Shown piece by piece: positions 7,720 to 35,589 of a stretch of DNA of 64,000 bases; positions within the stretch are counted from its first letter, which is position 1, and the number at the start of each line of letters is the position of its first letter. This DNA comes from Eledone cirrhosa (lineage: Eukaryota). Both the position numbers and the translations under genes were made by a program. A model generated the notes under the pieces. The model searched no databases. It worked only from the letters and a program-made list of their open reading frames with translations, and was not told the DNA's origin. The stretch lies in assembly GCA_964016885.1 (NCBI GenBank), contig OZ024750.1:15066001-15130000 (forward strand), written 5' to 3'.

Positions 7720-7768
7720 ACGTCTTCTGATGAGGGTCCAATATGATCCGAAAATCAATTAAAGTTGT
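7720..7768 (+). ncRNA. Minimal type I hammerhead ribozyme motif
   Basis: Stem I ACGTCTT/AAGTTGT (1 mismatch, 1 wobble), core CTGATGA at 7727-7733, stem II GGGTC/GATCC, GAAA, stem III AAT-ca-ATT, cleavage triplet UUA (A7761). Confidence 0.7.
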
Positions 7769-7845
7769 TTATTCATTTTTTTATTTATTTACGGGGAAAT
7801 TCATATTTTCTGTCATATTTGATCCGTGTATATGTTTATACGTGT

Positions 7846-8128
7846 GGAGGCACGTGGCCTAGTGGTAAGGGTGTTCGACTTACGATCATAATGTCGTGGG
7901 TTCGATTCCTGGGTTGCGTGTTGGGTTCTTGAGCAAAACACTTCATTTCACGTTGCTCCAGTATACTCAGCTGAAAATGAGTACCAGCAATAGCTGGGGG
8001 TTTAACCCTGCGATGGAGTGACGTCCTGTCCAGGGGGTAGTTTTGTACTCTCAGTCGCTTCACGCTATGAAACCGGGATAAGCACCGGCCAAATGAGCCT
8101 TCTGGCTTAAGACAGACTTTAGACTTTT
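7846..8128 (+). mobile_element. tRNA-derived SINE with Meta domain (MetaSINE-like)
   Basis: A box TGGCCTAGTGG and B box GGTTCGATTCC. Central 'cctgcgatgga...tccagggggtag...tcgcttcacgctatgaaaccgggataag' block, then AGACTTT tail repeats. Decayed ~16 bp TSD (atatgtttatacgtgt / atatatttatacacgt). Confidence 0.85.
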
Positions 8129-8181
8129 AGATATATTTATACACGTTAGTGTAGTCTCGGTTATACACTGTAGTTATAACC

Positions 8182-8360
8182 CCTATTGTTCCCCTGACAC
8201 ACCTCTCATATGGGACCCCTAGCACGCTTGTTGTTGGCAACAAGGTCACATCTCTCCTAAGTCCCCAGCAAGGTGATCTACTCGGTTCACTCATCTTTCC
8301 GCTGGTTGTCGATCACATTACAGATGGGATAATTATCTTCTCATTCGATTTGTATCTGGT
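8182..8360 (+). mobile_element. CRE-like non-LTR retrotransposon reverse transcriptase fragment
   Basis: 'PLTHLSYGTPSTLVVGNKVTSLLSPQQGDLLGSLIFPLVVD' resembles the 'Y..PS.L..G...I.S..GVQQGDPLGP.LF.L' RT motif. Confidence 0.65.
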
Positions 8361-8937
8361 TTACATAGAACACAAAACTATGATATACCAAATTAATATA
8401 TATTTGGAATTAAAAAATCGGTTCTATAATATTTTTACTTGATATGCTGGATCGGTTCTATAATATTTTTACTTGATATGCTGGGATGGTTTAATAAAAC
8501 TTACTTTGAAGTTTGACGTTTCTTATATTCGGATCTGAAATCAAATGCTGTTGGATGGATTTACAATATATAATTTAGTGTGACATTACAGTAACTGGAA
8601 CATACTGAGGATAGTTGAAGCAAATGCACTACTTTACCTTTGTAATCATTTCGGATCAAATAAATCATAAGCAATATTACGCTTAAGGAGAGTGATAGAT
8701 TGGTAGCATTTTTAGAGCCTTAGATAAAGTGCCATCATCTTATTTGTTCCGTTTTTTTTTTTACATTCTGAGTTCAAATCATGTCACGGTCAACTTTGAC
8801 TATCATCCTCCCGGGGTCAGAATTAGTATTCGATATTAGACCCCTTAAAGCACGAGATTAAGCAACTAGTGAACTAAAACTACTTTCCAGTTTCAATTCC
8901 CTCACTAAGTTTATTTCTGAACATGCAAGTTTATATT

Positions 8938-9123
8938 GTGTGGATTGGCAGTATCGGTAGAGGGTCGGACGCCATGCTTTTCAGCATAGTTACGCCCCTT
9001 TATGATCTGAGTTCAAATCCCGCCGAGGTTAACTTTGCCTTTCATCCTTACGGGGTCGATAAAATAAAGTACCAGTAATGCACTGGGATAATTGCTGGCC
9101 TTGTGCCAAAAGTAGAAACAATT
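8938..9123 (+). mobile_element. tRNA-derived SINE with Nin/Deu-like domain (dominant family, full copy)
   Basis: Head 'gtggattggcagtatcggtagag', B box GTTCAAATCC, body 'ctttgcctttcatccttacggggtcgataaaataaagtaccag', 3' end 'agaaacaatt'. Confidence 0.9.
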
Positions 9124-9968
9124 GTAAGGGAAAGAAATGGAAGGTTTATTTTCCTCAATAATACTAAAAGTATAAGGTGTATGATAAGGCTTTAAACCTG
9201 AATTAAAGCCACTGTGCAATCAGGGAATTCACCCTTCCTCTGCACATATATATGTGTATTGGTTATTGAAATCGGTGACCGAGTCTTTATTGAATTATGC
9301 ATGTTATGTTCTAAGCAGCTATCAGTAAAATACAGGTTTACTTAGTAGTACAAACACATACAACCAGCTTTGTAATAGAATATTACTAAATGTTCTCTGA
9401 TATGAATAAGCACAAACTTGGAGTACAGCATTATGTAGAGAGAATATTAAATATCATAATTATACAAGAGCAAGCTGAAATGTGGTCAGTTCTAGTTACA
9501 AATATGATGAAATGTGTCATGTTTCCTACTAGTTAATTATACGATTGTTATCGGACTTTTCAGAATAAAGGAGACATTTTATTGATCTCATTTTGTTCTT
9601 TTATTATTATACGAAATCCTCTCGTATATTTTCCACTATATCATTTTGACTTCAAATATCAAAACGAAAAGTATGATATATTGAGATACAATGGTAATTT
9701 ATTTACAGATAATTAATGGCACCTGTAATGAAATGAAAAGTCTTGCTATTCTGGTAATGTTTGACTATATACACATTGCCGATATTAGTCAAGAATGAAC
9801 ATTTGCAAGTAGACTCGACATCCTTGGTTTGCTTTCTGGAAGCCTATTTATTTTTCACTTCATTCAATTCCCTTTCTGATGTTTAGTTGTTATAGTTACA
9901 TATATTATATTTATGAAATAAATTTTAAATAAAAGTATGAATTGAAATATCAAGAATTTAGAAAATAT

Positions 9969-10157
9969 AATTGTTTCTACTTTAGGCACAAGGCCAGCAA
10001 TTACCCAGTGCATTACTGGTACTTTATTTTATCGACCCCGTAAGGATGAAAGGCAAAGTCAACCTCGGCGGGATTTGAACTCAGATCATAAAGGGGCGTA
10101 ACTATGCTGAAAAGCATGGCGTCCGACCATCTACCGATACTGCCAATCCACCGCCCT
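9969..10157 (-). mobile_element. Nin/Deu-like SINE, full copy
   Basis: Reverse complement of the 8938 copy. Confidence 0.9.
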
Positions 10158-10232
10158 CGAAACCATGTATCACGTAGCAACTAAAACAAATATTTTTAGG
10201 GTACTCATTGTTGTATATAGCATTAAATGTAT

Positions 10233-10460
10233 TGAAACAGGAATAGGGAAAGGACCGCTGGATAACATCAATGAACTCAACTGATCTCGCTTGGGGATCC
10301 AGCTGGATCAATTGAAGATGGTTGCTTCAGACAGCTTTCACTGGAAGACGTGCTTGAGGGCACTGCTCCCACGACCTTCTCAGGAATAAGTGGACGAAGA
10401 AAAAGAAGAAGCAGAAGAAGAAGAAGAAGAAGAAGAAGAAGAAGAAGAAGAAGAAGAAGA
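10233..10460 (+). mobile_element. Short 3' fragment of the same RTE family with (GAA)n tail
   Basis: Closely matches 5785-5960 and ends in about 60 nt of GAA repeats. Confidence 0.85.
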
Positions 10461-11100
10461 TATGGGGGACCCTGTTAAATATTGATTCATATCTTACAAA
10501 ATATTACTAACAAGAACTAAATTGTAGTTGTTATATGAATAAAAACTAATAGACTATACAAACATCCAATAAGTACAGCAGGTCCTATTGCCATAAATAA
10601 ACTCAGCAATCGTGTGATCGCTGTCATCTTTACAAAAAGCATATGGGACATCCATACTTCGGAAATCAAAACAGTTCAAAAGGATTAGAAAACCACTCAC
10701 TTTTAATTTGAAGTGTAGATATTTCAACATATTTAAAATCTGAGAACATACTGCTTCATATCAGAATTAAATGCATTAGAAGAATTAAAAGTATATACAG
10801 ACAAAATGCATATACTGCGCATATACTAATTGAAAATAGAACATTGATGAAGAAATGAAGAAACCTATATTTCAATTGTACACAATAAAATCTAGTGTAT
10901 TTATTCTGTTGAAGATATTAATTGCCTTAAGAGAATGAAAGAAGAAATATTCAAACGGAATCCAAATAAGTAAAAGAACGGCTCATCTGTTATATACATT
11001 TCTAGATTTAATGCAGCTTTAAGTCGCCTACTGGTAGAACATGAGGCTACAACATCCACATACATTTTGTGTATACACACGCACACACTAACACACACAA

Positions 11101-11188
<88 letters not shown>

Positions 11189-11244
11189 ACGTATATTTAT
11201 ATATATACAGGATGTGATATATATATTTATATCAGAAAGAGTGT

Positions 11245-11395
11245 GGTAAAATACCAGGTGGACCATAAACCACCAAAGTACTCGATACTTGGGGAAGCAG
11301 AGTGGATAATATGAAAAGATTCAGGACCCCATGGCTGAGCTCCGGCGGTGACGACAGCTAGATCCGAACTAGTTCGGATCTAGCTGTTGTCACGT
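11245..11395 (-). mobile_element. (TA)n-embedded fold-back element, family A
   Basis: Shares the 'gtggtaa...ccaggtggaccataa...agtactc' tail and the 'gacagctagatccgaactagttcggatctagctgt' palindrome with the 37455 copy. Confidence 0.8.
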
Positions 11396-11396
11396 G

Positions 11397-11447
<51 letters not shown>

Positions 11448-13034
11448 GTTTCCATGTTTTTACTCTCTGACAATGAAATATTCTGTAGTGCTATATCTCT
11501 CTTCCACATTTTATATTTTTTACGGAGATGTCTGAACTCCAAAATTTCGTTTTTGTGCTAAAAGAACAAACAAACATTTTAATGTCCTATAAGATTGTGT
11601 TTTTGTTTGTCAAATTGTGAGTTTATAAGTATGTCTATGTTTGTTGTCCTTTTTCTCTTTAACTTCGTCTTAAATATGTTTCCATGTTTTTAAAAACATA
11701 GTAGTGTGGTATACGCTTTCATGACCTCTCAGTCCCTCCAGATTTAGCTGTATTGCATTGAACACATAATAAACAAGCTAAAGTGGATATCTGCTAAACA
11801 TTTGTATACAGTAAAGATATCTAGATTTCGAGACTTGATTTCTCGGTTGATCTTTCGGAAAACATTTTTTCTTAAAAGAAAAATAGACCAAAGAAGAACT
11901 GGTTATCCATCTGACGCAAACATGTATATACTGTAAAGATATCTAACAAGGAGACTTGATTTCTCGGAAAAACATTTTACGAAAATATGTTTTTCGACAA
12001 GCAAACAAGAAGTGGCTATCTCCATGACGCAAACATAGTCAAATCATCTAATTTATTTTCCGGAGTTATGTTCCAGGAATCCGTCGAAGACAAATAATAT
12101 CAATAATAATGAATAGAATATATTTAATTATCAGTTTTATTTTCGGTATATTCTTTGATGTATTTAAATGAGTTGTTTATATATTCAATTCCACTTATGA
12201 TTATATTAATAAAAAAACAACTTCATCTTGGAAATTGTGGAACAGTTAATATATACTTAGTTACTTTAAACGAATATTGATATATTGCCATGTCTACGAC
12301 ATTGCACGAAACGTATAATAACTTTTTAAATCAATATACTTGCAAATTAATTAGAAATATTGATTTTTTAAAGGGTAGGGGGTATAGTTTATGTATGTAT
12401 TCAAGCTGCTCGTTTAAAAGAAACTGCTGAATATAAATCTAACGTCCACAATTTATCAGTGTGGCGCAACTAAGAAGTGTCTAATTATAAGCTCTATTCG
12501 TTTTATTTATTGTGTTTTAATAAGTAGATAGTAATTTGTAGCAAAAGGGAACACAAGAAAATGACATATAATTAGCAGCACTAGAATACAAGTCTGATTG
12601 ACGATATTGACGAAGAAATACGATATAGTCATATATGATATACAATGTTTTATCATTTTAATTGTAAAATGTGTGTCCAACGCCAAAATGGAAACCATTT
12701 TAGAAATGAAAATAACATTTATGACCTTGCCAAGACAGAAAAACAAACAAACAAAATATTAATAATAATTAACATTCGTATTCATTAATTACCAAATATA
12801 TCTTTAATTACCAATGGTATAGAATACTAATTATCAATTGTTCATTGATCCAATTTTTTCTATTTTTATATATATTTTCTATTGTAATTTGTGCATAATA
12901 CCGTAGCTGGTTACTAGTTTCAAGCATACTAACCATTGTTACACTACACTTTTCATGGTAAGAGTGACAAGGGAATAACTTTAAATTGATGGGGGTCAAA
13001 ATGTCAAAGAACTTAATTTACACAAATGTACGTA

Positions 13035-13145
13035 ATTTCATAGGCTGATAAAGATAATCTCATGGAATGTGACCAAATGAGTTTTATTTTTCAATATAGT
13101 CTCCCCTGCGGTCCGCCTACTTCTTCCATTGGTGTTGCACAGCTG
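13035..13145 (+). mobile_element. Mariner-like DNA transposon terminal remnant
   Basis: 'ttcataggctga...ctcatggaatgtgaccaaatgag...tttttcaatatagtctcccctgcggtcc' resembles a mariner subterminal sequence (recalled, not searched). Confidence 0.5.
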
Positions 13146-13326
13146 AAGTGGGTTTGAATTAACCACCCACAGGCTGGCAAAACAATACTCTTACAAAGTT
13201 TACCGTTTCCCTAATAATACATAAAACAATTGTTTTTACCAAAAATAAATCAATATTTCTCTCTCTCTCTTTATATATATATATATATACATATATATAA
13301 ATAAATATATTCATAGACACACACAC

Positions 13327-13414
<88 letters not shown>

Positions 13415-13452
13415 GTATATATAAATATATTCATACACACATATATATTCAT

Positions 13453-13514
<62 letters not shown>

Positions 13515-13865
13515 TATGTATATATAAACCCTCAGAATTTGCATCGATGGTCCCATAACACTCAAGTCATATTGATTATATTGATACAGCCTCAACAAAC
13601 ATTCCAATCACCTTTTATATCACAATTCATGTTTGAAAACAAAGAATATATATGATAATAAATCTAGTAAAAGCATTCCATCAAAGAATACTGGGAAGCA
13701 AGATAAGGCAGGAGTACAAAGAATTGGGTTTTTCCCGCGGTGATTTCTGTTTAGAGAGATTTAGAAATAAAAATTATGTAAATGAATGTTATCGCTGAGA
13801 AATATAGTAATCAAAGGAATAACTCATGAATTCTAACAGATTATGGTGATAATTACAAATGGAGA

Positions 13866-13947
<82 letters not shown>

Positions 13948-13955
<8 letters not shown>

Positions 13956-14265
13956 TGCCCCCCTCGTTATCGAGTATGGCCATTGCATATATACCATTAT
14001 TAATAATTATTAATTAATTCTATCATGCAATGCCTGTGCGTGAAGATATTTTTTAAAGTGAGGAAAAACTGTGCACTGAGCCAATTCCACTCTCTGGGCG
14101 ACAGTAGCTATAAGCCGAAAAGAAGAAAAGATCAACATCATCGGTAACTACTGAGCCGCAGGTTTTATGTCGGAGTTATCCCAGTTTTCTGAGTTGCCTT
14201 CTCCTAGAAGAATGCCCTGACAAAGGCTAGGGGTCCTTCACTCCCTGTGGTTTAACCGCGCGGTA
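13948..14265 (-). mobile_element. Non-autonomous bipartite RTE-derived element (5' UTR piece joined to 3' end)
   Basis: The minus strand has an RTE-type 5' motif 'ctaggagaaggcaactc' and a 3' end 'atggccatactcgataacgagggg...cagcca' running into a simple repeat. Related copies at 16010 and 43810. Confidence 0.65.
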
Positions 14266-14436
14266 CATGTGTATAACATATTTACACACTTTTGGATGGC
14301 CGTTGACTCTTATGAGTTCTTTCGCCCTTTGTCAGGTTTTGATTTTTGTCTTGCAGGGTGTCCAAAATCACCCTCCACACCAATTAATACATACATACAT
14401 AGGCATATATATACATAATATATATATACATACATT

Positions 14437-14640
14437 CAGTGGCGGACTGCGTCTATAAATATTGGTTGCCAGGAGATGAAAGGGTGCCACCTACATATAT
14501 AATGCTATCATTTAATTTTTATAATAAATAACATTTTAATGGAAACAAAACAGTCCAATCAAATTTTTGCTGAAAAATATCTTACCTTCTCCAATAAAAT
14601 ATTATGCATTTTGCGAAATCCAGAGACTTTCAATAATGAC
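14437..14640 (+). mobile_element. DNA transposon (hAT-like) left end; second copy at 15375-15560
   Basis: Both copies begin CAGTGGCGGACT and share 'aaatattggttgc' and 'cagtccaatcaaatttttgc...gcgaaatccagagactttcaataatgacc'. Confidence 0.6.
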
Positions 14641-14641
14641 C

Positions 14642-15091
14642 AGAAGTCGACCCTAAATATTACTAATAGATTAGTAAAGCCATGAACATCTTTTAAAATT
14701 TGATTTTGAAAGTAGGTTTATAACTATCAATTTTCATTATACTTTCGTAGCTGTCTCGGTGGCCTAGTTGGAGAGATCTTAGACTGTGGTAATCCTGGTC
14801 TGAAGTTCCATCCTGGTCGGGACTAGGGTTCCCGGTAAGCCTTTTCAGTTGTTTTATCTATGGGATGTAAAATAAAAACAAAAAAAAAGCTTACATTTGC
14901 CTCTTGACAAGGATTGAACCCAAGACCCACCATTCGGTCACTGCACCCACCATTCGGCCACTGAAACAACTACGAAAATCTACGGAAAATTCATACTTAT
15001 AAACCTACTTTCAAAATTTTCAATACAAAAAAACGTGTGGTGTCGTTCATATCTTTCTTAATGTTATTGCTCCTACTTAAGGTCGACTTCT
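14642..15091. mobile_element. Fold-back element with long imperfect inverted arms, each containing a tRNA-like head
   Basis: Ends are AGAAGTCGACC and GGTCGACTTCT. Arms share 'ttttgaaagtaggtttataa' and 'tttcgtag.tgt.tc.gtggcc'. Confidence 0.7.
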
Positions 15092-15204
15092 AAATCATTT
15101 GGGTGTTCCATAAACTACATCCTCGTTTTGTTTCACATCTATCTAGATTACATTTTACCCTGCAATCCATGTTTCATTTCTGTTCCACCACATTTATCCC
15201 CCCC

Positions 15205-15260
<56 letters not shown>

Positions 15261-15577
15261 GTGCTATTTGAATCTACTATGATTTGGGCTTACCTTATGC
15301 CTATATATATGTTTTTGCATGTCAGTTAGATTCAAACTTACAATGGTTGGCATTATATATATAATATATATATACAGTGGCGGACTAGGTCTAAAAATAT
15401 TGGTTGCTATCATTTAATTTTTATAATGAATAAATAACATTTTCAAAAAATACATAAATGGAAAAAAACAGTCCAATCAAATTTTTGCGGAAAAATATCG
15501 TACTTTCTCCAATAAAAAAATATGTATTTTGCGAAATCCAGAGACTTTCAATAATGACCTTTGGTTTTTCACTCACT

Positions 15578-15625
<48 letters not shown>

Positions 15626-15646
15626 ATGTGTGTGTGTGTATGTGGG

Positions 15647-15742
<96 letters not shown>

Positions 15743-16009
15743 TATATATATATACACACCACCTTCACCAGTAATTGATTTGACAGATGTCTTTAACCCA
15801 TTGATACCAAACATTGTTTGGTCAGTAGTTCGTGTGTAAGTATATAAATATATAAGTTAAAATAGAAAAACAAAAACAATAACATATATATATACATATA
15901 TATACATATATATATACATATATACATACATACATATATACATACATATATACATACATATATACATACATATATACATACATATATACATACATATATA
16001 CATACATAT

Positions 16010-16412
16010 ATGGTGGCTGCCAACTCGTTTTCGAGTACGGCCACTACTTTATATCCATGTAGGAGAACCCCTACCGATGCGCTGAACGAGTGTGACTTTT
16101 TAGTCCAGCCAGCGACTTGAAAACTCTGGTACAAACACTACACATGTGACAATTACTGACACATAGTGCTGGGCCCATGGTACCATGTGACGACAAGTGC
16201 AGAGAGATCTCCAGATATAAAGCAATGCCTGTGCCGTGAAGCTTTTATAGTGAGCAAAGGCACTGCACAAAGCCAGTCCCACTCTCTTAACCAAGATGAT
16301 ATTTACCAAAAAGAAGAACAAGTTAACATCATTGGATACCATCAGGGTTGCAGGTGTTATATCAGAGTTTTCCTTCTCCTAGAATTCTGCCTTGACAAAG
16401 GCTAAGGGGTCA
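16010..16412 (-). mobile_element. Non-autonomous bipartite RTE-derived element, diverged copy
   Basis: Shares 'tggctgcc..ctcg..tcgagta', 'gcaatgcctgtgc' and 'ccttctcctagaa...gacaaaggcta' with 13948-14265. Confidence 0.6.
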
Positions 16413-17043
16413 TCTCTCATACATTCATACATGCATACATGCACACATATAGACACACACGCAGATATATGTCTGTGAATTTACCTACATGAAAGAGTGA
16501 GCAATGTGTTGATAAAAAGCAGCAGTACCTAATTGTCGGTCTCATATTACATATTCGTCTGGCATGACACGCATTTGATGTAGTTTTTAATTCTTTCGCA
16601 ATGTTCTTCAGATGTTTACCAATGATTAGCATCGCCTTGGCAATTTACCTTTTTCACCTTGCAATGATGAATGTTTTACTTTTGTTTTTATTTGTTTCTG
16701 TAATTTCTACCAGTATTAATCTAATGACTTTTATTACAGATACTAATGCCAAAATTAAGCCGCATAAATCTGCTGGTCTTTAAAATTACTCCGTGTAAAA
16801 ATCCAATTAATTCTTGTAATATCCACCAATTAATTGAGGATTTTCTTGTCAAAGCATTTTGTCTTAGATGTGACTGACTCAAAAATAGAGATATGCTTTT
16901 TTAAAACCAGCATTTATATAATTAAGATTAGCATTAAAGAACTCTAAATTTCAGATATGAGATATGATTAGCTTCAAAATGCATTAATGTATTCTAAATA
17001 CAAAGGAGTAGAATCTAAACGATAGAAATCATATTCTTTTAAG

Positions 17044-17316
17044 ATAATTGTTTCTACTTTTTGGCACAAGACCAGCAATTATCCCAGTGCATTACTGGTA
17101 CTTTATTTTATCGACCCCGTAAGGATGAAAGGCAAAGTTAAACTCGGCAGGATCTAAACTCACACCGCAAAGGGACCTAACCCTATGCTGCCGATACTGC
17201 CAATCCACCTAAGATAATTGTTTCTACTTTTGGCACAAGGCCAGCAATTACCCAGTACATTACTGGTACTTTATTTTATCGACCCCGTAAGGATGAAAGG
17301 CAAAGTCAACCTCGGC
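17044..17316 (-). mobile_element. Two tandem Nin/Deu-like SINE copies (one deleted, one truncated)
   Basis: Two 'aagataattgtttctactttt' starts at 17041 and 17211. Confidence 0.85.
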
Positions 17317-17608
17317 AAATAATGGTTTATTATTTAGGCATAAGGGCAACAGTTTTTTGTGGGGAGACGAAACCCGATTAAAACAACATCGGAGCATCAC
17401 TAGTATTTTATTCGATCGATCCCATAAGGTTGAAAGGCAAGTTAACATCGGCGGGATTTGAACTCCATAAAGACTTTCGTTATTCACCTGAATTGAATTA
17501 AACACATACACCCACCCACACCCACACCCACACACACAAACACATACACAGATATATATGTAGATATATGTGTGAGTGTATGTATCTATCTATATCTTTC
17601 TCTCTCCC

Positions 17609-17809: not shown

Positions 17810-17867
<58 letters not shown>

Positions 17868-17924
17868 ATAATATATATATACAATAATATATATTAGTGG
17901 TGAACCAGTGGTGAACCTCAAACC

Positions 17925-17977
<53 letters not shown>

Positions 17978-18128
17978 ATACTTTGGGAGGGTCATGTTGC
18001 CAATAAGAAACACACGCACCAGTTGCTTTCACTTCAATTTAATTTATTAAATATTTATAAATTTACAAATTTATAAATTTCTGGTTGGTTGGTTGGTTCC
18101 ACAACCAGATAGTTGTTTATATATATAT

Positions 18129-18173
18129 AGTCATAGTTCTTTCGTCACACACTCTGTGACCTCTTCAGTGACT
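18129..18173 (-). ncRNA. Minimal type I hammerhead ribozyme motif
   Basis: Minus strand reads AGTCA-CTGAAGA-G-GTCACA-gagtg-TGTGAC-GAAA-gaac-TA-TGACT. It has a perfect 5 bp stem I, a 6 bp stem II and one extra G after A9. Confidence 0.8.
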
Positions 18174-18334
18174 GGGGATTTCTTTCTTCGTTTCTGTGCC
18201 TTTCCTTTCTTCTATCCTACGCCATTTTGTTTGTGTGAAATTCAGAAACGAAATATATATATATATATATATATACAATAATATATATATACAATAATAT
18301 ATATTAGTGGTGAACCAGTGGTGAACCTCAAACC

Positions 18335-18385
<51 letters not shown>

Positions 18386-18877: not shown

Positions 18878-19386
18878 GGGCGGTGGATTGGCAGTATTGG
18901 TAGAGCGTCGGACACCATGCTTTGCAGCATAGAGTTATGGCCCATCCTGATCTGAGTTCAAATCTCGCCGAGGTTAACTTTGCCTTTCATCCTTACGAGG
19001 TCGATAAAATAAAGTACCAGTCACGCACTGAGGGTCAATTAAATCGACTTTCCTCTCCCCCCAAAATTGCTGGCCTTGTGCCTATATAAGAAACCATTAT
19101 TTGAAGAGGAGAGGATACAATAGAAAAGCAGTGATATTAGAACACTTGAAACACTCAACACTAAGGAATTGTTTCTTATATAGGCACAAGGCTAGCAATT
19201 TTGGGGAGGGGAAAGTCGATTAAATCGACCCCAGTGCGTGACTGGTATTTTATTTTTATCGACTCCGTAAGGATGAAAGACAAAGTTAACCTCGGCGGGA
19301 TTTGGACTCAGGCCCTAAAGGGCTGTGACTCTATGCTGCAAAGCATGGCACCCGACCCTCTACTGATACTGCCAATCCACCACCCA
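18878..19386. mobile_element. Tail-to-tail inverted pair of long-variant Nin/Deu-like SINEs (18878-19100 +, 19168-19386 -)
   Basis: Both carry the extra 'gggtc.att.aatcgactt..cc.ctcccc' segment that the short variant lacks. Confidence 0.88.
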
Positions 19387-19434
19387 TTGGTTCTACATAA
19401 TAACATACATAAATACAGATATGGTTTTTCTCAC

Positions 19435-19635
19435 ATCTGAGAAAAACCACAGACCCTCCATCTCAACTCTACTTTTGAAAAGCAGAACTGCGAAACCGGT
19501 AAAGGAACCAAATAAATATATATATTTTTAAAAAATAAGACTCCAGTTGCATTTTCGATTTCATCTTTTTTCTTTATACTTTCACTCGTGTAGGACACCG
19601 GTTATTTTTCATTTTGTAAAAAAACCTCACTTTCT
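19435..19635 (+). mobile_element. Short element ending in (TA)n, family B, carrying a variant hammerhead at 19471-19505
   Basis: CTT-TTGAAAA-GCAG-aa-CTGC-GAAACCGGTA-AAG. Reverse-complement homolog at 30689-30900. Confidence 0.75.
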
Positions 19636-19936
19636 TATATATATATATATATGAAAGACGTAAATAAGAAAGTTATGAAAATTGACTTACTAACTAAAAT
19701 TTCACTCCAACTAATTAGTTTCTGTAAGGGGATAAATACAGTTATGTAATACCTGTAGAGAAGCCTTACGTCATCAGGGAGTCTATTCTCAGCTAAGCCA
19801 CCAGGCAATGCGGGGACACTGGAAGCTTATATAACAATAATTCAGTGGATGGAAAAAAGCGAAAAAATCGAGCGGGGCTATATATTTGCTAGCGTAGGTA
19901 TGCATCTGTATACATATGTCGGTAGATATATTAATT

Positions 19937-19969
<33 letters not shown>

Positions 19970-20688: not shown

Positions 20689-20870
20689 CGGTGGATTGGC
20701 AGTATCGGTAGAGGGTCGGACGCCATGCTTTCCAGCATAGTTACGTCCCTTTACGATCTGAGTTCAAATCCCGCCGAGGTTGACTTTGCCTTTCATCCTT
20801 ACGGGGTCGATAAAATAAAGTACCAGTAATGCACTGGGTAATTGCTGGCCTTGTGCCTAAAGTAGAAACA

Positions 20871-20890: not shown

Positions 20891-20901
<11 letters not shown>

Positions 20902-20906
20902 AATCT

Positions 20907-21080
20907 AGAAATGGCTTCTACAGGACTAGAACTGTTTAATCCAGGAGAAATCATTTCCTGAATGAAACAGTTCTAGTCCTGAAGAAGCCATTTCTGTATT
21001 ATATATTAAATATTTATACTCTGCTATGTATTGAGTACCTTACTTACTATGGATACTCCCGATTGAACCCGGGATAACTT
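20907..21080 (+). mobile_element. Fold-back short element, family D, with partial hammerhead (GAAAC-agttcta-GTC)
   Basis: Inverted arms at about 20907-20937 and 20965-20995. Related sequence at 54405-54508 and 39835-39852. Confidence 0.6.
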
Positions 21081-21499: not shown

Positions 21500-21540
21500 T
21501 CGTTTCCTGATGAAAACCACAACCCGAAACGTTGACTATT
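21500..21540 (+). other. Degenerate PLE-type hammerhead motif
   Basis: CTGATGA at 21507 and CCCGAAACGTTGAC at 21523, but stem II no longer pairs. Confidence 0.45.
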
Positions 21541-21680
21541 CCTGTTTTATATTTTTATTGCAGTATAAACCTAATTACATTGTGTTCTTCGTGTTTTTGT
21601 TACTTTATTTCTTGGAATCGTCTTGAGATATTATTTTTGTGAAAGACGGTTTTTAGGTGTTTCATTATTTTTATTATTAA

Positions 21681-25075: not shown

Positions 25076-28000
25076 TCCAAAACACAACTGGATTATTGAA
25101 GAAGCATTAATTTTGTTACGATAGAAACTTCAAATACAGATGAAGACAATGCTTTATTAGTGTAAATGACAAAGGAGTGTCTACAACTCGGTGAACACAC
25201 AACCCGAAACCGCTTGGCACCGCGGCCGGGGTGAAAGCAGCGATTCTTTGCTAAAACTTTAATCTGTTATTTTAATAAATATGTATATATATATATTATA
25301 GTATATATATATCTATATCAAGAGCTTCCACATAGTTTCTGTCTACCATATTCCGGTTTTGGTAAGAAATCCTCACCCAACATATGCCACACAGACAGAA
25401 TCAATCCCGAAGTCATTTGTTTGTGAAGTGAATCTCTCTTTACGACACACAGTGATACATGTGCTCATTTCTGATAATAAGTAACTTTAATATTTGCTTA
25501 TCATTTATATGCGTGTCTTAGACTACTTTTCATTCAAGTTTTATCTATTTTATCATGATATTAGATATTTATAGGAATTGAAAACTGAATAATAGAAAAC
25601 AAGATCAGAGACAAGTCATAAATATCGTATCTTGCTTGACCAAATACATATATGTCAATCAACTCAATTCCTATACGAATCATAAATCGTGAATTCTTGA
25701 CTTGATTTCAGATATATGTATCAATGAATGATTATTTAGTTTACCCAATTCATGAATTTTACTGAAGATTTTGACCCTTAAGTGATGAAAGGCAAGCTTA
25801 GTCCTATTGGGGTCAGGAAAACAATATTAGCGGTGAAAATGAAACAGTATCAAAGAAGCAACTAAACCGAGTTTAGCAGACATTGAGATCTTTCTGTCGC
25901 TCAGCAGTTTTCGAAAATATATTGAAATGTACTTTTGAAGTGCAGATATGATAAATAACGATTGGTTTTATTACACACAGAATGGGGTCCAGCTAACAGA
26001 ACACAACGCTATATTCTGGATGTAATTTCAGTGAATGAGAAAAAAAGCATTCATCTATTTATTTTCCAATGAATATTTTATGAAATATGGTTTTACTGTT
26101 GAGGCCAGTGACAGTCTGCTAATGTTCTATAGCACTATTACCATCACCGGTATTGTTAATGTATAGGACTACCGTTGCACAGATCGCTGGTTTATATTTC
26201 AATACATATGCTGGTTTATGCTTTCAGGAAGTTATTCATTTAATAAATATGTAATCTTGCTAGTTATAAATAAGTTCTATATCGAGATATAAAATCAAGC
26301 TTTGAAAAACGAAAGCAAAATATGATTGCAAATTAAACTCAATCCCGTTTGAACACTGAGGCTCCTATTCAGAGAACGATGTGCTTCTTAATAAATTATC
26401 ATTGTTGTGATAAAGTTTGTATTTTATTCTAGAGTGAATCTTATTAATGCAGGCTCTTTGATTTTTTTTAGCGAAGGCGCGTGGCTTAGTGGTTAGAGCA
26501 TTGGGCTTGTAATCGAAAGGTTGTGAGTTCGATTCTCGGACCGGGTGATGTGTTGGGTCCTTAAACAAGACACTTTATTTCACGCTGTTCCAGTTTACTC
26601 AGCTCTAGAAATGAGTTGCGATCCTGCCAAATCAATGGGTGGCAGTAGTTCCAGCTGCACACATCGAAAGACTGGTGTAGTGGTTCTGAGAACAATGCGG
26701 CTTTGCAGATGATCAATGCAAATTGACAATGGAAAGGCGCTCCCACTCGAGTTAGAAGAAAACTATTGACCTTCAGGAGAAGCAGCGACCCCATGATTGT
26801 ATTAAGCAACCGAAATATGAAGTATACCAAATCCAATGATCCTAGGGGCGGCCCTGGTTCTTCTTATTTGCGAGTGTAAACTCGGCCAGATTAGATTAGA
26901 TGATTTAGACAAATTTTATAAATTGCTTCATTTTTATCATGTATAAGATAATCAGATTTATCTTTCTTTGACTTTTTGTTAACACATAGAATCCTGTCCC
27001 TATATACAGTGAGTGATACTATTAAGGTATCTATTAAGTAAATGATTGACGTAAATCAGAATGTTCTATAGAAATGAAAATAGTAACATTTAAGAGATAT
27101 AGTAGTAGGTCAGATTCCCGTAATATACTTTATAGTTAGGCGAATTTTGAAGATGTAAACATTAAGGTGCTAGAGTTAACCTTAATATCAGGTGTGGCGT
27201 AACATGAAACTGTTTATATTGACGAAGCTAGAGCAAAGTTATTGACATCAGCTTTCAGAATGTTAATGAGATGTGAAAAATGCAAAAAGATACATCCATA
27301 TTTATATTTATCTGCATTTCTACTTAAGCATGATTTTAGGGAGTCCACGATTCTATGATAAATTGTTAACACATCTCCCTCAAATTACGCTCAGTGATTT
27401 TATATATAGAAATACACACAAGTTGGAATATTACTGGAACGAAAAGATGTGATGGTCTCAGTTGTGACACCTTTAATCATACATTTTTACTGCTCTATAG
27501 CAACTGATATAAACTAAATAACAACATATAAGTTGTACCACGTCATATAGATGATTTGTGATAATGTATACTTGTCACATGATTTGTGATAATGTATACT
27601 TGTCATATGGTAAATTATATAGGTTACTTATAAAATATACAGGTCAGCTTAGTGTTCTATAAGTGCCGGCTCACCTCATGAAATTTGCTACTTGGAAACT
27701 AATGGAAGAAAGAATGCTTTTAAGAATTTCGTTTCTAAATCTATAATGAGTGCGCATAAAAGTGCATTTTGGTCATTGAAATATCTTGGTGAGGAAAATA
27801 TATTAAGATAGAATGTTTGAAAAAAAAAACTAATCGAAGTAGAGAATCATCGTCGCTGTGAAAGTATTTGTAGTCAAGCAGTTTTACTATTATCATTAGA
27901 TGTGGAAATGATTTAAGTCTAATATAGATTTTATATTATTCGAACAATTTCTAGTTGATGAGATCAAAGTAGACGTTTGTATAGATTGGAAGACGCTGGT

Positions 28001-28158
28001 ATTACTTTTAACGTAGAAATATTTATGATTTGAATAACTTTTAAGATATCTGCAATATTTACAGCTATGTTAGTCTAATTTTAAACAGACAAAACATTTA
28101 CAAACGTTATATGTCCCTAACTACAGATATCGTGGAAAAGCGTTAAACGATAATATAA

Positions 28159-28220
<62 letters not shown>

Positions 28221-28227
28221 TGTAGGT

Positions 28228-28276
<49 letters not shown>

Positions 28277-28457
28277 CAAGCTCTCTTTAGTATCTTTAGA
28301 TTCGTTGAGCGATAGGAAGTTTGTGAATTTGAAAGAAATATTTACTTTGTTTGACTATGAAGCTTCTTTCAAATTCTATCACTCAAATATTCTAAAGATA
28401 GATTATCTACATGTACTGCCTGTAATGTAAGGCTTAATATAACGGGAAAATATGTCG

Positions 28458-28532
28458 GTGTCGCTTTGGTGTAAATGGAAAACACGGTTTAACAGACATT
28501 GCATGTGCGGGTTCGAGTCCCAAGGATGGCGC
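28458..28532 (+). pseudogene. tRNA-like sequence (decayed tRNA or SINE head)
   Basis: A box TGGTGTAAATGG, B box GGTTCGAGTCC and a weak acceptor stem. The anticodon arm does not fold. Confidence 0.45.
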
Positions 28533-29737
28533 GTTTATATATCCAAGTTTATCCTGTTACTTTAAATCTAGTTCTAATCGGAAGGTTTACAATCTCAACA
28601 TAACATTATAGCCGTGGAAACCTTAGTAACACTAAGTCTCCATATCTTAGATATATGATACTCTTATCAGTATCCTCTCTTAAGCTAAAACACTCCTGTT
28701 GTATCACTTTAAGCACATTTTTATTGTAATATGCTTCAATGAATAGCTGCTATGTTTGAGAACCAACATCAACATCTCTAAATTTCACCCAACTTTTTAT
28801 TCTGTAAACGACACATACATTTTATATTTGTCTCAATCTATCGCTACAATATACAAAATATTCTTGCGAATATTCTTCTATTAAACAAATTGAATTCGTA
28901 TAGTTGATACCTACGAAGGATTTGGCTATATGTTTGTATACATTAGGTAAACAGGTTGGCAGAATCATTCTTTACATTTTATATTAAGAACATTCAGTAA
29001 ATACTACTGAGTGGAAAGCGAGAATCGTGGTGCAATTTAGAAATTATATGCAATCACATGGATTCTCGACTAGCTGGAGATTTTGATTCCATTTACGTTG
29101 ATTACAATGTTGCTGCCGACTGTTTTCATGGTAAAAATATCAGTAAAACACTGTTTTAATTGCATCCGATATAAGAAAGTGTGACTTCATAGTAATAATT
29201 GATTTCGTCTCTGAAGCTTATTCAAACATGCAAATAATAGATGTTCGTGTTATCGCAAAGTCTTTTAGCTAACACAGTTTCCACATGTAATGGAGGCTGT
29301 ATCTGATTTTGTTATGTCGAGTAATTTAACTAACGCTCTCTTCTTATTTCATGAGTCTTTTTAGCCAACATACACATTTGATGCAACATTAACTTCACCA
29401 TATTGAGGTTTCTATTACGTGTTTTAGCTGTGTTTATCTATAAGCTATGTATCATTTTATTTTTGTTGACATACGCACGCACACATGCACACATATACAC
29501 ACATATATATGCACATGTGTCTATGAATGTGTTTGCGTGCGTACGAATGCGTGCAAGTATAGTGTACTTGGTATGACTACCTTAAAATAAAAACATACCT
29601 TAATACATGAACAGGAAATTGTAAAGTTCAATGGGTTACTGTGGATAGCAGTCTCATTGCAGGCAAAAATCATTGGATTTCCGCTCTGGATGAAATTAAT
29701 ACTTACAGAGAAGCATTAAACGTTTCAACACCTGCAA

Positions 29738-29787
<50 letters not shown>

Positions 29788-30360
29788 GCATGTAATAGTA
29801 CATTCTAGGAATTACTGTTAATCATTTTATTTATTTAATCAATTAAACGTCTGTATAGAGCTAATAAACCACGACAGACTAGGTGGGTATTTAGTACTTC
29901 TTACAGCTTAGAAACAAAAAAATAATATTTACAGAGATAATATAAAAATAAAAATAAAAGTTAAAAAGCAAAAAAATAAAATAAAGTAAAATAAAATATG
30001 AAATAAAGTAAAATAAAATATGAAATAAAGGTTATGTTAAATGGCATAGCATTACATATATGTTTCTAGAAGTAAATTGGACAACGGAAAAAGGATTGGT
30101 TGTCTATAAAAGCACCGCACGGAGACACCCACACTAGGAAATAAGGAAAAAGAAACGTTTTGGCTTTCTAACGTAATCATGATGCTAAATCAAAATAGAG
30201 AAAACAAGAAACAAGCCTAAAATAATTCCTGATCTTTGATATAGATTGTCCGATCTTTAATATAGATTGCTTTGATCATTTGCACTAAAAACCGATTTGT
30301 AGGAATATTCATCGCTTCACTTCTATGTTAATCAAGAGATAGTAATATAGATAGAAATAC

Positions 30361-30439
<79 letters not shown>

Positions 30440-30506
30440 TGTATGTATATCGCTGGCCGGACACCGTTGAATTAATACCAGCGATTTTCGTAAATTTTAT
30501 ATAGTA

Positions 30507-30546
<40 letters not shown>

Positions 30547-30573
30547 TACATAGACATATATATATATATACAT

Positions 30574-30626
<53 letters not shown>

Positions 30627-30688
30627 TACATAGACATATATATATGTATATATATATACATACATATATGTATATATACATATATATA

Positions 30689-30900
30689 TTAGAAAGTGAG
30701 GTTTTTTTTACAAAATGAAAAATAACCGAGGTGTCCTACACGAGTGAAAGTATAAAGAAAAAGAGATGAAATCGAAAATGCAACTGAAGTCTTATTTAAA
30801 AAAAAATATATATATTTATTTGGTTCCTTTACCGGTTTCACAGTTCTTCTGCTTTTCAAAAGGTGAGTTGAGCTGGAGGGTCTGTGGTTTTTCTCACATC
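30689..30900 (-). mobile_element. Family B element between (TA)n tracts, with variant hammerhead at 30826-30863
   Basis: Minus strand reads CCTT-TTGAAAA-GCAG-aagaa-CTGT-GAAACCGGTA-AAGG. Confidence 0.78.
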
Positions 30901-31053
30901 TATATATATATCTCACATCTATATATATATCTCACATATATATATATAGACATATATATATATACATATACATATATATACATATATATATGCCTATATA
31001 TATATATATACGTACATATATATATATATACGTACATATATATATATACATAC

Positions 31054-31104
<51 letters not shown>

Positions 31105-31142
31105 GACATATATGTATATGTATATATATATATATACATACA

Positions 31143-31174
<32 letters not shown>

Positions 31175-31220
31175 CACACATAGACATATATATATATGTA
31201 TATATATATATATACATACA

Positions 31221-31272
<52 letters not shown>

Positions 31273-31274
31273 CA

Positions 31275-31324
<50 letters not shown>

Positions 31325-31326
31325 CA

Positions 31327-31360
<34 letters not shown>

Positions 31361-31571
31361 GACATATATATAGACATATATATATACATACATATATATG
31401 CCTATATATATATATATACACATACATACATATATATATAGATGTATATTTTCCATGAACTAAAGTCAGCCTAATTTTAGATTATCATGTCCGCCTACCA
31501 GCTTGACAAACTCAATATTTGCATGGCGTCATCAGTACTATGACATTAGCAAGGAAAGTAGAGTTAGGAAC

Positions 31572-31963
31572 GCTATTTAACCTATCTCTATATTAACCCC
31601 GTGTATATGATTAAGAAGCTATTTAACCTATCTCAATATTGACGCCATGTAAATGATTATGAAGCTATTTAGCCTAACTCTATATTAACCCCGTGTATTT
31701 AACCTAGCTCTACTCTGACCCTGTGTATATGACTAAGAAGCTATTTAATCTAGCTCTACCCTGACCCTGTGTATATGACTAAGAAGCTATTTAATCTAGC
31801 TCTACTCTGACCCTGTGTATATGATTAAGAAGCTATTTAATCTAGCTCTACTCTGACCCTGTGTATATGACTAAGAAGCTATTTAATCTAGCTCTACTCT
31901 GACCCTGTGTATATGACTAAGAAGCTATTTAATCTAGCTCTACTTTGACCCTGTGTATAGGAC
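31572..31963. repeat. 46-bp minisatellite, about 8-9 units
   Basis: Unit gctatttaatctagctctactctgaccctgtgtatatgactaagaa. Period checked from 31740 to 31786. Confidence 0.95.
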
Positions 31964-32702
31964 TATAAAAATAAGGTGAAAATAGTACAATGAATGATTA
32001 AGTTATTACTCCATCGACAGGAGAGAAGTTGCCTATACATGGCACGGGTTGTATGCTTTGAAATTTAATTTTACTTGACAGAAATATCCTTAGGTATCTT
32101 ATATATATTTCTCTACAGCTTAGTATAGTAATATTTATCCTCCTACAATAAAAAAAATATGAAATTTTGTATTTTCGTATTCGTTAATCTACAAAGCAGA
32201 ACAATGTATCAACAGAACACATTTAATGGAGATTTCAGGAATCTTTTATAGAACAAAATCAAAATTTCTGAGCTACTGAAAACCTCAAGTCACATATCCG
32301 AACAGCATTAACAACAACTATAATGACAAGGACAACCAGATAAAGAACTAGGATAGCATTATCGTAACTAACAACAAAACCCACAAAGGAACAACATCTA
32401 AAACAACATTTACTATCACCACCAACACCAACAACAACAACAACATCAAATCCATCAGCAAAGCCAATATTAACAACAAAAACAACAATAACGATAATAA
32501 TAATAATAATAATAATGATAATAATAATAATAATGATAATAATAATAATAATATTGATTTACAGTTCAAAAGCAAAAAATATAAAGAGAAAAGACGCAAC
32601 CTTCTAGCTTAAGGTAATATATTTTTACATTAACGAGAAATCTTCACACTCATGGTGAAAAAAAAAAAGCTGGAATTCATACCTCCATACCTCCCTCCAC
32701 AC

Positions 32703-32774
<72 letters not shown>

Positions 32775-32919
32775 TATATGTATATATAAATTATATATAT
32801 ATATATGTATATATAAATTATATATATATATGTATATATAAATATATATATATATATGTATATATAAATATATATATATATATGTATATATAAATATATA
32901 TATATATATGTATATATAA

Positions 32920-32951
<32 letters not shown>

Positions 32952-33155
32952 GTATATATAAATATATATATATATAAATATATATAAATATATATATATA
33001 TATAAATATATATATATATATGTATATATAAATATATATATATATAAATATATATATATATATGTATATATAAATATATATAAATATATATATATATATA
33101 TAAATATATATAATATATATATAATATAATATATATATAATATAATATATATATA

Positions 33156-33238
<83 letters not shown>

Positions 33239-33426
33239 ATATATGTATATATTATGTATATATATATATTATATATATATATATATATTATATATATATA
33301 TGTATATATTATGTATATATATATATGTATATATTATGTATATATATATATTATATATATATATATTATATATATATATGTATATATTATGTATATATAT
33401 ATATTATATATATATATATATTATAC

Positions 33427-33491
<65 letters not shown>

Positions 33492-33542
33492 CATATATAT
33501 ATATATATATATATTATACATATATATATATATATATATATT

Positions 33543-33628
<86 letters not shown>

Positions 33629-34164
33629 TATATATAGGAACTATTATATATATATATAATTCATATGCGCAACCGTCTGTGCGCATATAAATGATCATAT
33701 ATATCATATATATCATATGTATGTATGTATGCATATATGTATGTATGCGTGTCTCCGTATGTGTTAGTAAGCAAATGTATGTAAGAATTAGGAAGCTTTT
33801 TCAATATAGACCGATATTATTGGAACTATTATTTCTATGTTGAATGTAATAAAATCAGTATTGGGAAGGGAGCAGAAATCATATTTAAGCTGTAAGCGGC
33901 TTTTAACATTAGCCACTTGCTCCAGTACATAAACTAATTCGTCTGACTAACTTGAGTATTTCAGCCAATCGATTGATTGGTATATCTTTCGCAAATAACC
34001 TGCTATTCCCGAGACCACTGTTTCATATAATACTTACAAACAGCATTCAACTCTTTGATTTATTATAATAAAATAGAGGTCTTTTATTTTTTAATTCAAA
34101 CTAATTCAACGTTTACTTATTTGCTTCTGTTTTATTTTTTGTGTCATTGTTGTATATATTTCAT

Positions 34165-34353
34165 AATTGTTTCTACTTTAGGCACAAGGCCAGCAATTAA
34201 CCAGTGCATTACTGGTACTTTATTTTATCGACCCCGTAAGGATGAAAGGCAAAGTCAACCTCGGCAGGATTTGAACTCAGATCGTAAAGGGACGTAACTA
34301 TGCTGGAAAGCATGGCGTCCGACCCTCTACCGACACTGCCAATCCACCGCCCT
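34165..34353 (-). mobile_element. Nin/Deu-like SINE, full copy, with TSD-like 'atatatttcataat' flanks
   Basis: Match to the family consensus. Confidence 0.9.
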
Positions 34354-35009
34354 TGGATATATTTCATAATACTCTTTAAAACTGTATGGTTTTCCCTGGT
34401 GGATGTTTGTAATAATGATGAGGTTATCCTAGAATCTGTAGGTCAACAATTCAACTTACCACGACAATCTGAGTAATTCACATTCTATAATATTTTCCAG
34501 TTATTCGGTTCTAATGAATCTCACAAAAAAACCGATCAGCACCTAATTTTCAGCCTAGGCAAACCCTGCTCACATGATGTTACTATATGCTTCACTTCCC
34601 TCAGTTTCTACCCTCTACCATATTTTCTTTTCACCCTACTTCCCTACTTACACGTGTCTGTTCATCATGTAAGTGTCTTTTTATATTAATGGCAGAACTA
34701 TTAATCACAACACTTCTAAAACAAATACAACATACTCGCAAATCAAAAACAAAACTACTCACGTGGCTGGTGCTCTATAAATCTTACAACAAACAAGAAA
34801 CAACGTATCTAATGATAAAAGTCTGACGTTAATGATGAACTTAGTGCTTTGCTATTAATGAATTGCGAGGAACCCACACAGAAGTCCGAAAAAAGATAGA
34901 ATATGTATACATAACTTTAAGTAAGCAAATATGTATACATAACTTTAAGTAAGCAAACTCTTTATGCAAATACATGCACACGCACACACACATATATATA
35001 TATATATAT

Positions 35010-35195
35010 GTAACAAAGAAGCTGTTGTCAGATACCGGGTGGACCATAATGCACCAGAGTACTCGATACTAAGGGTAGTGGAGTGGGTAACACGAAAAGA
35101 ATCAGGACTGACGATGGCTGAGTTCCGGTCATTTCGACAGCTAGATCCGAACTAGTGATTATATGATGCTAGTTCGGATCAAGCTGTCGAAACGT
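35010..35195 (-). mobile_element. Fold-back element, family A
   Basis: Family A tail plus 'tttcgacagctagatccgaactag...ctagttcggatcaagctgtcgaaa'. Confidence 0.8.
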
Positions 35196-35514
35196 GTCTG
35201 TGTGTGTGTGTGTGTGTGTTTTGTGTGTCTGTGTATTTGCATAAAGGGTTTGAATTAAAACGTCTACATACCTGGACTGGATGGGGGTGATTGTTTCGTT
35301 GGGGTATGGGGGGGGGGGACCTGCCTAGGCGAATTACGTAGAGTTTTGGGGTAGTGGATGGTCAACTTCCTCCGGACTTGAGCCTGCGCAAACCGGTGGG
35401 GGTGAATTGGGGCTCACAAGGGAACGGACGAAAGATTCAAGAACACCTGTTCTGTCCATTCCCTTGTCGATTCAATTTGGATTACCTCGGGAACATAACC
35501 ATATTATGTAACAA

Positions 35515-35589
35515 GCTGTCTGATGATGTCACGGCACTGGGTACACCGAAGAGTGTGACCACTGTCGTCATTGAAATATGTATCACAGC
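35515..35589 (+). ncRNA. Type I hammerhead ribozyme motif with extended stem II
   Basis: Stem I GCTGT/ACAGC, core CTGATGA at 35520-35526, stem II ACGGCA/TGTCGT plus inner TACAC/GTGTG, GAAA at 35573, stem III ATA-tg-TAT, triplet AUC (C35584). Confidence 0.75.

Follow-up and report, generated by a model that had tools for sequence, protein, structure and literature searches.

Minimal type I hammerhead motifs in Penelope-like element repeats: a 64-kb stretch of the Eledone cirrhosa genome

Hammerhead motifs in the window

A stretch of 64,000 bp from the genome of Eledone cirrhosa (assembly GCA_964016885.1, 3.0 Gb; contig OZ024750.1, positions 15,066,001 to 15,130,000 of the forward strand), hereafter the window, was analysed for type I hammerhead ribozyme motifs and for the repeats that carry them, most of which are considered here as parts of Penelope-like elements (PLEs). 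The window has a GC content of 31% and is rich in TA and CA tracts. A sequence-only reading had listed five foldable hammerheads, at 7720, 18129, 19471, 30826 and 35515, and at each of these places helix I, the seven-base core, helix II, GAAA, a helix III of 1–4 pairs and NUH were found. Its division of the five sites into four sequence families also held, and the families are named here by site as C (7720), A (18129), B (19471 and 30826, which are one family) and D (35515). The list was incomplete: two intact hammerheads on the minus strand, at 19777 (family Y) and 45383 (family X), had been missed. Further repeats were named F (20907, 54455) and H (35011, 37290 and others).

The motifs have the composition of a type I hammerhead, with a C3-G8 or U3-A8 core, GAAA, NUH and three helices. 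A descriptor in which CUGANGA or UUGANAA was allowed found six sites in the window (7727, 18168, 19475, 19777, 30859 and 45383); in 60 local dinucleotide shuffles the average was 0.17 sites and the highest count 1, and none of the 60 reached six. The descriptor was tuned after the sites had been seen and misses family D at 35515, whose helix II opens with U-U and G-U. The hammerhead models of Rfam, run on small stretches of the window, gave one weak match (Hammerhead_3 at 7702-7759, 14.9 bits against a cut-off of 48.5), so that no window motif reaches an Rfam hammerhead cut-off, and none at all in the stretches holding 18129, 19471 and 35515. Site 30826 had no stretch of its own and was covered by the whole-window run alone, where no hammerhead was among the best 150 of 559 matches, which were dominated by microsatellite-like microRNA models. 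A poor fit to these models would be expected of minimal motifs.

Exact motif matches were counted genome-wide for five families (9,103 for A, 12,254 for B, 9,418 for Y, and 1,063 and 78 for the remaining two). They sum to 31,916, or about 0.7 per 64 kb; the window contains 5, and the search patterns were derived from it. With 78 to 12,254 matches per family, the proposal of a large radiation of PLE-linked, (TA)n-targeted hammerhead repeats was upheld. Across thousands of copies the motifs hold the same place, near the 3' end in every family, and the core columns are less variable than the other columns in D (0.005 vs 0.060), C (0.056 vs 0.098) and B (0.006 vs 0.016), as the earlier reading had required of genuine motifs. 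In B, helix III forms an exact palindrome (self-duplex -8.3 kcal/mol). It also pairs with itself in Y and D, but A and the window copy of C show no such self-pairing.

The view that the motifs are chance matches in AT-rich, repeat-rich DNA can call on the tuning of the descriptor and on the Rfam scores, and a motif fragment at 21500 may be such a case. We regard it as extremely improbable in general, given the shuffle counts, the fixed place of the motifs in thousands of copies and the helix covariation described below, and families A, B, C, D, X and Y already contradict it.

Coding families

Two pieces of family B lie in the window. The first, at 19421-19635 on the plus strand, has a short inverted stub at 19421-19431 and its 3' end at (TA)n, and its hammerhead occupies 19472-19504 with a predicted cut after 19501. 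The second, at 30690-30901 on the minus strand, has both ends in (TA)n-rich DNA and a hammerhead at 30826-30863, with a predicted cut after 30830. The CUGANGA core named in the earlier reading does not apply to these two, which have the U3-A8 core UUGAAAA. Helix I of the 19471 copy is 3 bp long and its loop II carries a deletion; the 30826 copy has a G-U at 10.1-11.1. In 27/29 other copies all 11 core positions are as in the window. The core is the U3-A8 swap of C3-G8 reported for Schistosoma PLEs (PMC4209133), and not a product of decay.

A genome search for GIY-YIG domains gave 10,595 candidates, 150 of which were scored, and B matches 8 of 40 GIY-YIG loci at 89-93% identity. At one locus (L121) it stands, at about 89-92% identity, before and after a frame of 938 amino acids (aa) with Pfam matches to both RVT_1 (E 2e-6) and GIY-YIG (E 2e-6), and B is therefore the pseudo-long terminal repeat (pLTR) of an element encoding reverse transcriptase (RT) and endonuclease. 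U3-A8 and the CCGG palindrome are retained in a related coding family, whose helix I reads UUUU/AAAA where B has CCUU/AAGG, and in which one helix II pair is U-A where B has G-C. In all eight copies inspected of a coding family related to B (L139:5353-5480, L133, L138, L127, L117, L116, L109 and L114) GCAA replaces GAAA alongside U3-A8, a core variant of which the literature passages compared make no mention.

The 5' ends of B copies are strongly clustered. When the 3' 106 nt alone were used as query, 18/29 other copies started within 13 nt of each other, some 70 nt ahead of the cut and with about 215 nt left to the 3' end; three started slightly later, five were shorter and three longer, so that about 60% of copies are short and share one start point. 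The first 14 Mb of contig C1 hold at least 35 B motif matches, 12 of which pair with the exact upstream junction; the other 23 were fetched, and 2 were long and 21 started at the common point. Genome-wide, 3,315 of the exact B matches have the exact junction, which is a lower bound. The fixed start is probably a transcription start inside the pLTR, and a short RNA beginning there would be the commonest family B template. The rival account is a stop of reverse transcription or self-priming on an antisense template (PMC3846280). Inverted pairs of B had the tail on one arm only in 25/25 cases, with a query that itself included the tail.

Family A is represented by a pLTR piece at 17973-18237 on the minus strand, comprising a 5' untranslated part and the start codon of an open reading frame (ORF), with its 3' end at (TA)n. 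Its hammerhead, at 18129-18173 (minus strand, predicted cut after 18134), has an extra G between A9 and helix II. An inverted stub of the 3' tail follows at 18240-18253 (plus strand) and ends in (AT)n, and the whole insertion is flanked by a 106-bp exact direct repeat, partly TA tract, at 17865-17970 and 18275-18380, likely a target duplication and a long one if made at insertion. Elsewhere the A repeat, 99.2% identical, lies on both sides of a 1279-aa frame (L367:2323-6159) in which RT and GIY-YIG motifs were read by eye. The frame is unbroken and has long asparagine/threonine-rich inserts, resembling the asparagine-rich inserts reported for rotifer Penelope. In L365 and L367 the A ORF lies between direct repeats or partial tandems; in loci chosen by the ORF end, A follows that end in 20/20 young and 25/25 older cases. 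Some copies are very young, a 737-bp stretch of the element being present at least 39 times at 100% identity. No RNA data set was listed as containing the A stretch, a result that carries no information on its expression.

The 3' tail of A is the start of its own ORF. Among the 30 top matches were 25 head-to-head pairs, of which 24 had a tail of about 57 nt on exactly one arm (15 left, 9 right) and the 25th had the tail with a 4-nt duplication. An interpretation of A as a fixed-start palindromic non-autonomous family was dropped, as it came from this biased top-match list: among copies sampled by position, 32/43 run on upstream, 8 start near the start of the window copy and 3 are shorter. A junction count of 14% for A underestimates the long copies, and a search with the 3' part of A alone gave no candidates. 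In contigs from two runs of one organism the common variants of the A motif fell at the outer helix I pair, at H17 and in loop III, none of them in the core, and H17 varied only among allowed bases; two other-organism runs gave only 1 and 3 contigs. A YY1-core motif (GCCAT on the other strand; core as given in PMC11602158) was noted at 18221-18231 on the minus strand, about 10 nt inside the start point of 8/43 sampled copies, and by analogy with L1 it could set the transcription start of A.

The 3' end of a third coding PLE, family X, lies at 45284-45602 on the minus strand, with a hammerhead at 45326-45391 (core at 45383). A GIY-YIG-type ORF was found upstream in 5/5 loci extended. The frames are broken, RT and GIY-YIG motifs were recognised by eye with no Pfam hit, and the extended loci showed inverted arms only and no flanking direct repeats.

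Coding frames with the same repeats, which the earlier reading had suggested looking for, were thus found for A, B and X. In these families an ORF with RT followed by a GIY-YIG endonuclease, clearest in B, goes together with a pLTR that contains a minimal type I hammerhead. A CX4CxxC linker motif is present in A and B and absent from X; the motif is given for Neptune and Nematis (PMC8557442), and a clade placement of A and B might be drawn from it.

Non-coding families

Three of the five listed sites are therefore pLTR pieces of elements encoding RT and GIY-YIG, and the idea of one candidate family of non-autonomous elements does not hold; only the families at 7720 and 35515, together with the overlooked one at 19777, are non-coding. 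The longest frames in full units of C, D and Y are 61, 101 and 81 aa, with no tblastn match to PLE proteins below E 0.7, and unit GC is 29-37%. In all three, 3' ends lie at microsatellites, and inverted arms and partial tandems of the pLTR type occur. Runs of at least two adjacent units, each containing a complete type I hammerhead, were seen only in Y and at one D locus.

The window copy of C is 5'-truncated (7684-7819, plus strand) and derives from a non-coding head-to-tail unit of about 354 bp; the rest of it lies at 8131-8178 on the plus strand, beyond an unrelated inserted repeat at about 7841-8129. Its hammerhead, at 7724-7764 on the plus strand (core at 7727, predicted cut after 7761), is decayed in helices I and III and has lost the helix III palindrome that its relatives have. 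Family C is old (81-88% identity). Its 3' end joins its own 5' start with a period of 347-359 bp in 8 loci, mostly as partial tandems, and the unit folds no better than shuffles (z -1.0). Near one family C copy an open frame resembling the end of a protocadherin gene was seen (L080:1-972).

Family D is present as the 3' 442 bp of a 1377-bp non-coding unit (35277-35718, plus strand), with its 3' end at (TA)n. The inserts had been put at 100–300 bp, a range that this copy exceeds and that does not describe the divided C copy. The D hammerhead (35515-35589, plus strand, predicted cut after 35584) has a U-U at the base of a long helix II, as do several other families in this genome, and 18/19 copies keep all core positions. 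In loci chosen by the 5' part of D, that part is directly preceded by the family's own 3' end in 22/25 cases.

Family Y occurs at 19653-19883 on the minus strand as the 3' part of a non-coding tandem unit of about 530 bp, with a hammerhead at 19704-19782 (minus strand) that has a palindromic helix III and a covarying helix II. An inverted arm of its tail lies at 19879-19944 on the plus strand and ends at (TA)n. The family is young (97-99% identity), with a period of 530-532 bp in 5 loci, and same-strand tandems 522-571 bp apart were found at 39 of the first 100 sites listed. The unit folds far better than shuffles (z -4.6). Among 6 divergent copies, 6/19 helix pairs have changed on both sides; this covariation score was reached by 0/500 shuffles and fell to 0.1 or less when partners were slid, in a test limited by sequence relatedness. 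On these sequence features Y is the best retrozyme candidate. The tails of B and Y meet on a single short TA tract (19635-19653), and in the fetched loci PLE copies of different families often share TA tracts.

One alternative that these units suggest is that all inserts are a radiation of short non-autonomous retrozymes moving as circular RNAs defined by cleavage. The non-coding C, D and Y with their more-than-unit-length repeats, the frequent tandems and stable folding of Y, and the short B copies with one start point are all in its favour. We consider it unlikely as a general account, since A, B and X are pLTRs of coding PLEs and so not independent of an ORF, most sampled A copies extend upstream, the C unit folds like shuffles, 5' ends are not at the cut site (see below) and PLE junction features are common to all families.

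Interpretation and proposed mechanism

We therefore read the five sites, with a probability of about 0.85, as minimal type I hammerheads in the terminal repeats of four PLE families, two of them coding for RT and GIY-YIG and two non-coding and likely borrowing enzymes. Target-primed reverse transcription likely placed the copies in (TA)n tracts, and the motifs are predicted to act on element RNA as weakly cutting dimers. Every family ends at TA tracts and has a variable 5' end, partial tandems and inverted pairs.

Under this interpretation, and following what is known of PLEs (PMC8557442), the GIY-YIG endonuclease would nick (TA)n, the TA-ending 3' end of the RNA would prime at the nick, and RT would copy from there. 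Copying would usually stop early or switch template, giving short, inverted or partial-tandem pieces; C, D and Y would use the enzymes of coding PLEs in trans, and most copies in the window would be dead leftovers. The hammerhead is found 55-215 nt in from the 3' end and again in the upstream repeat, and cutting at both would give unit-length RNA able to circularise, as in the model of PMC4209133. The inserted DNA spans the cut site, and the template would therefore have been uncut or religated RNA.

Several results weigh against this interpretation. The isolated motifs at the five sites have folding z-scores of +0.59 to -1.13, no better than shuffles, and only for 18129 and 35515 does the minimum-energy fold show helices I and II, so that "foldable" is right in the sense of compatible with the hammerhead fold and wrong in the sense of stable. 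Few 5' ends fall within -15 to +14 of the predicted cut (A 1/189, B 8/140, X 0/76, D 4/66, C 3/86, Y 10/76), and few of these are at the site itself. The mapping of 5' ends accordingly gave no support to copies beginning at the ribozyme cut, and cleavage has left no genomic footprint in the six families. The dimer model is weaker for A, where helix III does not pair with itself (self-duplex +1.4 kcal/mol). Published activity is low: in PMC4209133 monomers were inactive and dimers weakly active, and cleavage occurred in 1/9 dimers in a recent preprint (bioRxiv 10.64898/2026.07.22.740005). The conservation within families is partly CpG decay and recent common descent. On the coding side, the 1279-aa A frame has no Pfam match to RT or GIY-YIG, and a second A copy matches RVT_1 alone (E 4e-4). 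For C, D and Y no coding partner with a similar 3' end was present among the loci fetched, which sample part of the PLE families of the genome. Lunse and colleagues are said to have dealt with PLE hammerhead dimers in 2017.

The motifs might accordingly be vestigial or non-catalytic, retained in the pLTR as RNA elements that bind protein or lie close to the promoter, without ever cutting in vivo. The weak folding, the missing footprint, the low published activity and the non-standard cores, including GCAA for GAAA in the relative of B, fit such a role. In B and H, however, C3-G8 has been swapped as a pair to U3-A8 while position 7 varies freely, H17 in A is limited to allowed bases, and helices covary. 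Together these form the pattern expected if catalytic geometry is under selection, and we find a purely non-catalytic role improbable; catalysis in at least some families is predicted and, in our judgement, likely.

A bolder proposal, which we put forward tentatively and would at present sooner doubt than adopt, is that PLEs of this genome spawn two mobile ribozyme RNAs. One would be the pLTR-only class of B, with thousands of copies derived from a discrete RNA of about 215 nt that starts 70 nt upstream of a U3-A8 hammerhead and is copied in trans in the manner of a short interspersed element (SINE); the other would be a young 530-nt Y retrozyme with a covarying dimer-type hammerhead that circularises. 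If this is true, the fixed B start and the strict one-arm tail offer a direct handle on the unsolved copying cycle of PLEs.

Comparison with known systems

Most of the arrangement agrees with published PLE hammerheads (PMC4209133): the minimal type I motif in both flanking repeats, an extra nucleotide between 9 and 10.1, the U3-A8 variant and a short palindromic helix III, with most motifs solitary in truncated copies and opposite-strand pairs 100-700 bp apart. Differences are the new sequence families, the non-palindromic helix III of A and the relative with GCAA for GAAA. Shared with PLE insertions in general (Craig et al. 2021, PMC8557442; Arkhipova et al. 2013, PMC3846280) are 5' truncation, partial tandems, an inverted 5'-truncated arm, a palindromic junction, (TA)n targets and non-autonomous derivatives with pLTRs. 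That the one-end tail of A is the start of its ORF matches the description of rotifer elements (PMC3846280). The tails found here measure about 55-60 bp, as opposed to 30-40 bp in those reports, and the descriptions compared in them hold no counterpart of the short copies with a single fixed 5' end that dominate in B.

C (354 bp) and Y (530 bp) are non-coding, low-GC, head-to-tail type I units like non-LTR (long terminal repeat) retrozymes (Cervera and de la Pena 2020, PMC7229834; Li et al., bioRxiv 10.64898/2026.07.22.740005), and the U-U at the helix II base of D recurs in the axolotl retrozyme HHR_Amex2 (PMC7229834). Retrozyme monomers are given as 150-450 bp (PMC7229834) or 51-972 bp (2026 preprint) with GC under 50%; by size C fits both ranges, Y only the wider and D, at 1377 bp, neither. 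Unlike retrozymes, A, B and X belong to coding elements, the arrays are dimers, trimers or partial, the motifs look minimal and not canonical, and the elements are known here from DNA alone. A PLE origin has been proposed for retrozymes.

Already in print are minimal hammerheads of pLTRs and their spread as solitary motifs in truncated copies, the core variants, the targeting of microsatellites, non-autonomous PLEs, retrozymes of molluscs and the PLE origin of retrozymes. The repeats described here are no new class of element; they are a new local set of a known arrangement. A search for octopus or cephalopod Penelope hammerheads, whose coverage largely left out subscription papers and supplements, found no description of these families. 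One large animal genome thereby contributes no fewer than eight PLE families with hammerheads; for five of these the exact motif copies exceed 30,000 in total. They may be used in repeat annotation and in choosing active substrates for two questions, the role of PLE hammerheads and the origin of the inverted arms and tails. Family Y and the fixed-start class of B are most worth specialist attention.

Other sites in the window

Two further repeat families account for most of the partial motifs. Family F forms an inverted pair at 20899-21013, both arms of which end inside the hammerhead core, with another piece at 54445-54517; the decayed motifs reported at 20907 and 54455 are thus real relatives, cut off inside the core. 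Family H forms an inverted pair at 35011-35190 and has eight matches in the window, including 11240, 37287-37672, 41249, 61586 and 62404. Window copies of H are without the 5' half of the core, and those of F likewise without its first half. A guessed full core for H gave no matches, and the actual core was taken from longer copies; 3 of 4 long copies elsewhere have a U3-A8 core with position 7 free. H is probably what the sequence-only reading had called its family A. H and F were seen to invert or break mostly inside the long helix II or the core (35150-35190, 37340-37545, 20899-21013), which suggests template switching at strong hairpins.

The fragment at 21500-21545 on the plus strand (CUGAUGA...GAAA), also listed as partial, has no helix II, and no second copy of the motif was found.

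A decayed PLE RT had been placed at 35790-36520 and linked to the hammerhead at 35515. The stretch is single-copy, and its sole RT-like motif, a short one, is on the minus strand, opposite to 35515 and beyond the 3' end of D, of which it is no part. Four tests gave no statistical support for a PLE origin, which is not confirmed: a genome search returned only pieces of about 50 nt elsewhere, tblastn with 538 frames gave no hit, a frameshift-aware alignment scored 46 against up to 44 in shuffles, and a cleaned profile gave E 6.7.

In the flanks of the fetched loci more than 12 further recurrent types of hammerhead-like motif were seen, several with U-U at the helix II base. Short interspersed repeats, presumably tRNA-derived cephalopod SINEs, are plentiful in the window (7841-8129, 18880-19100, 19180-19390, 20690-20870 and many more), and two of them form an inverted pair at 19029-19234. 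A 46-bp minisatellite of about 6-9 copies occupies 31564-31965.

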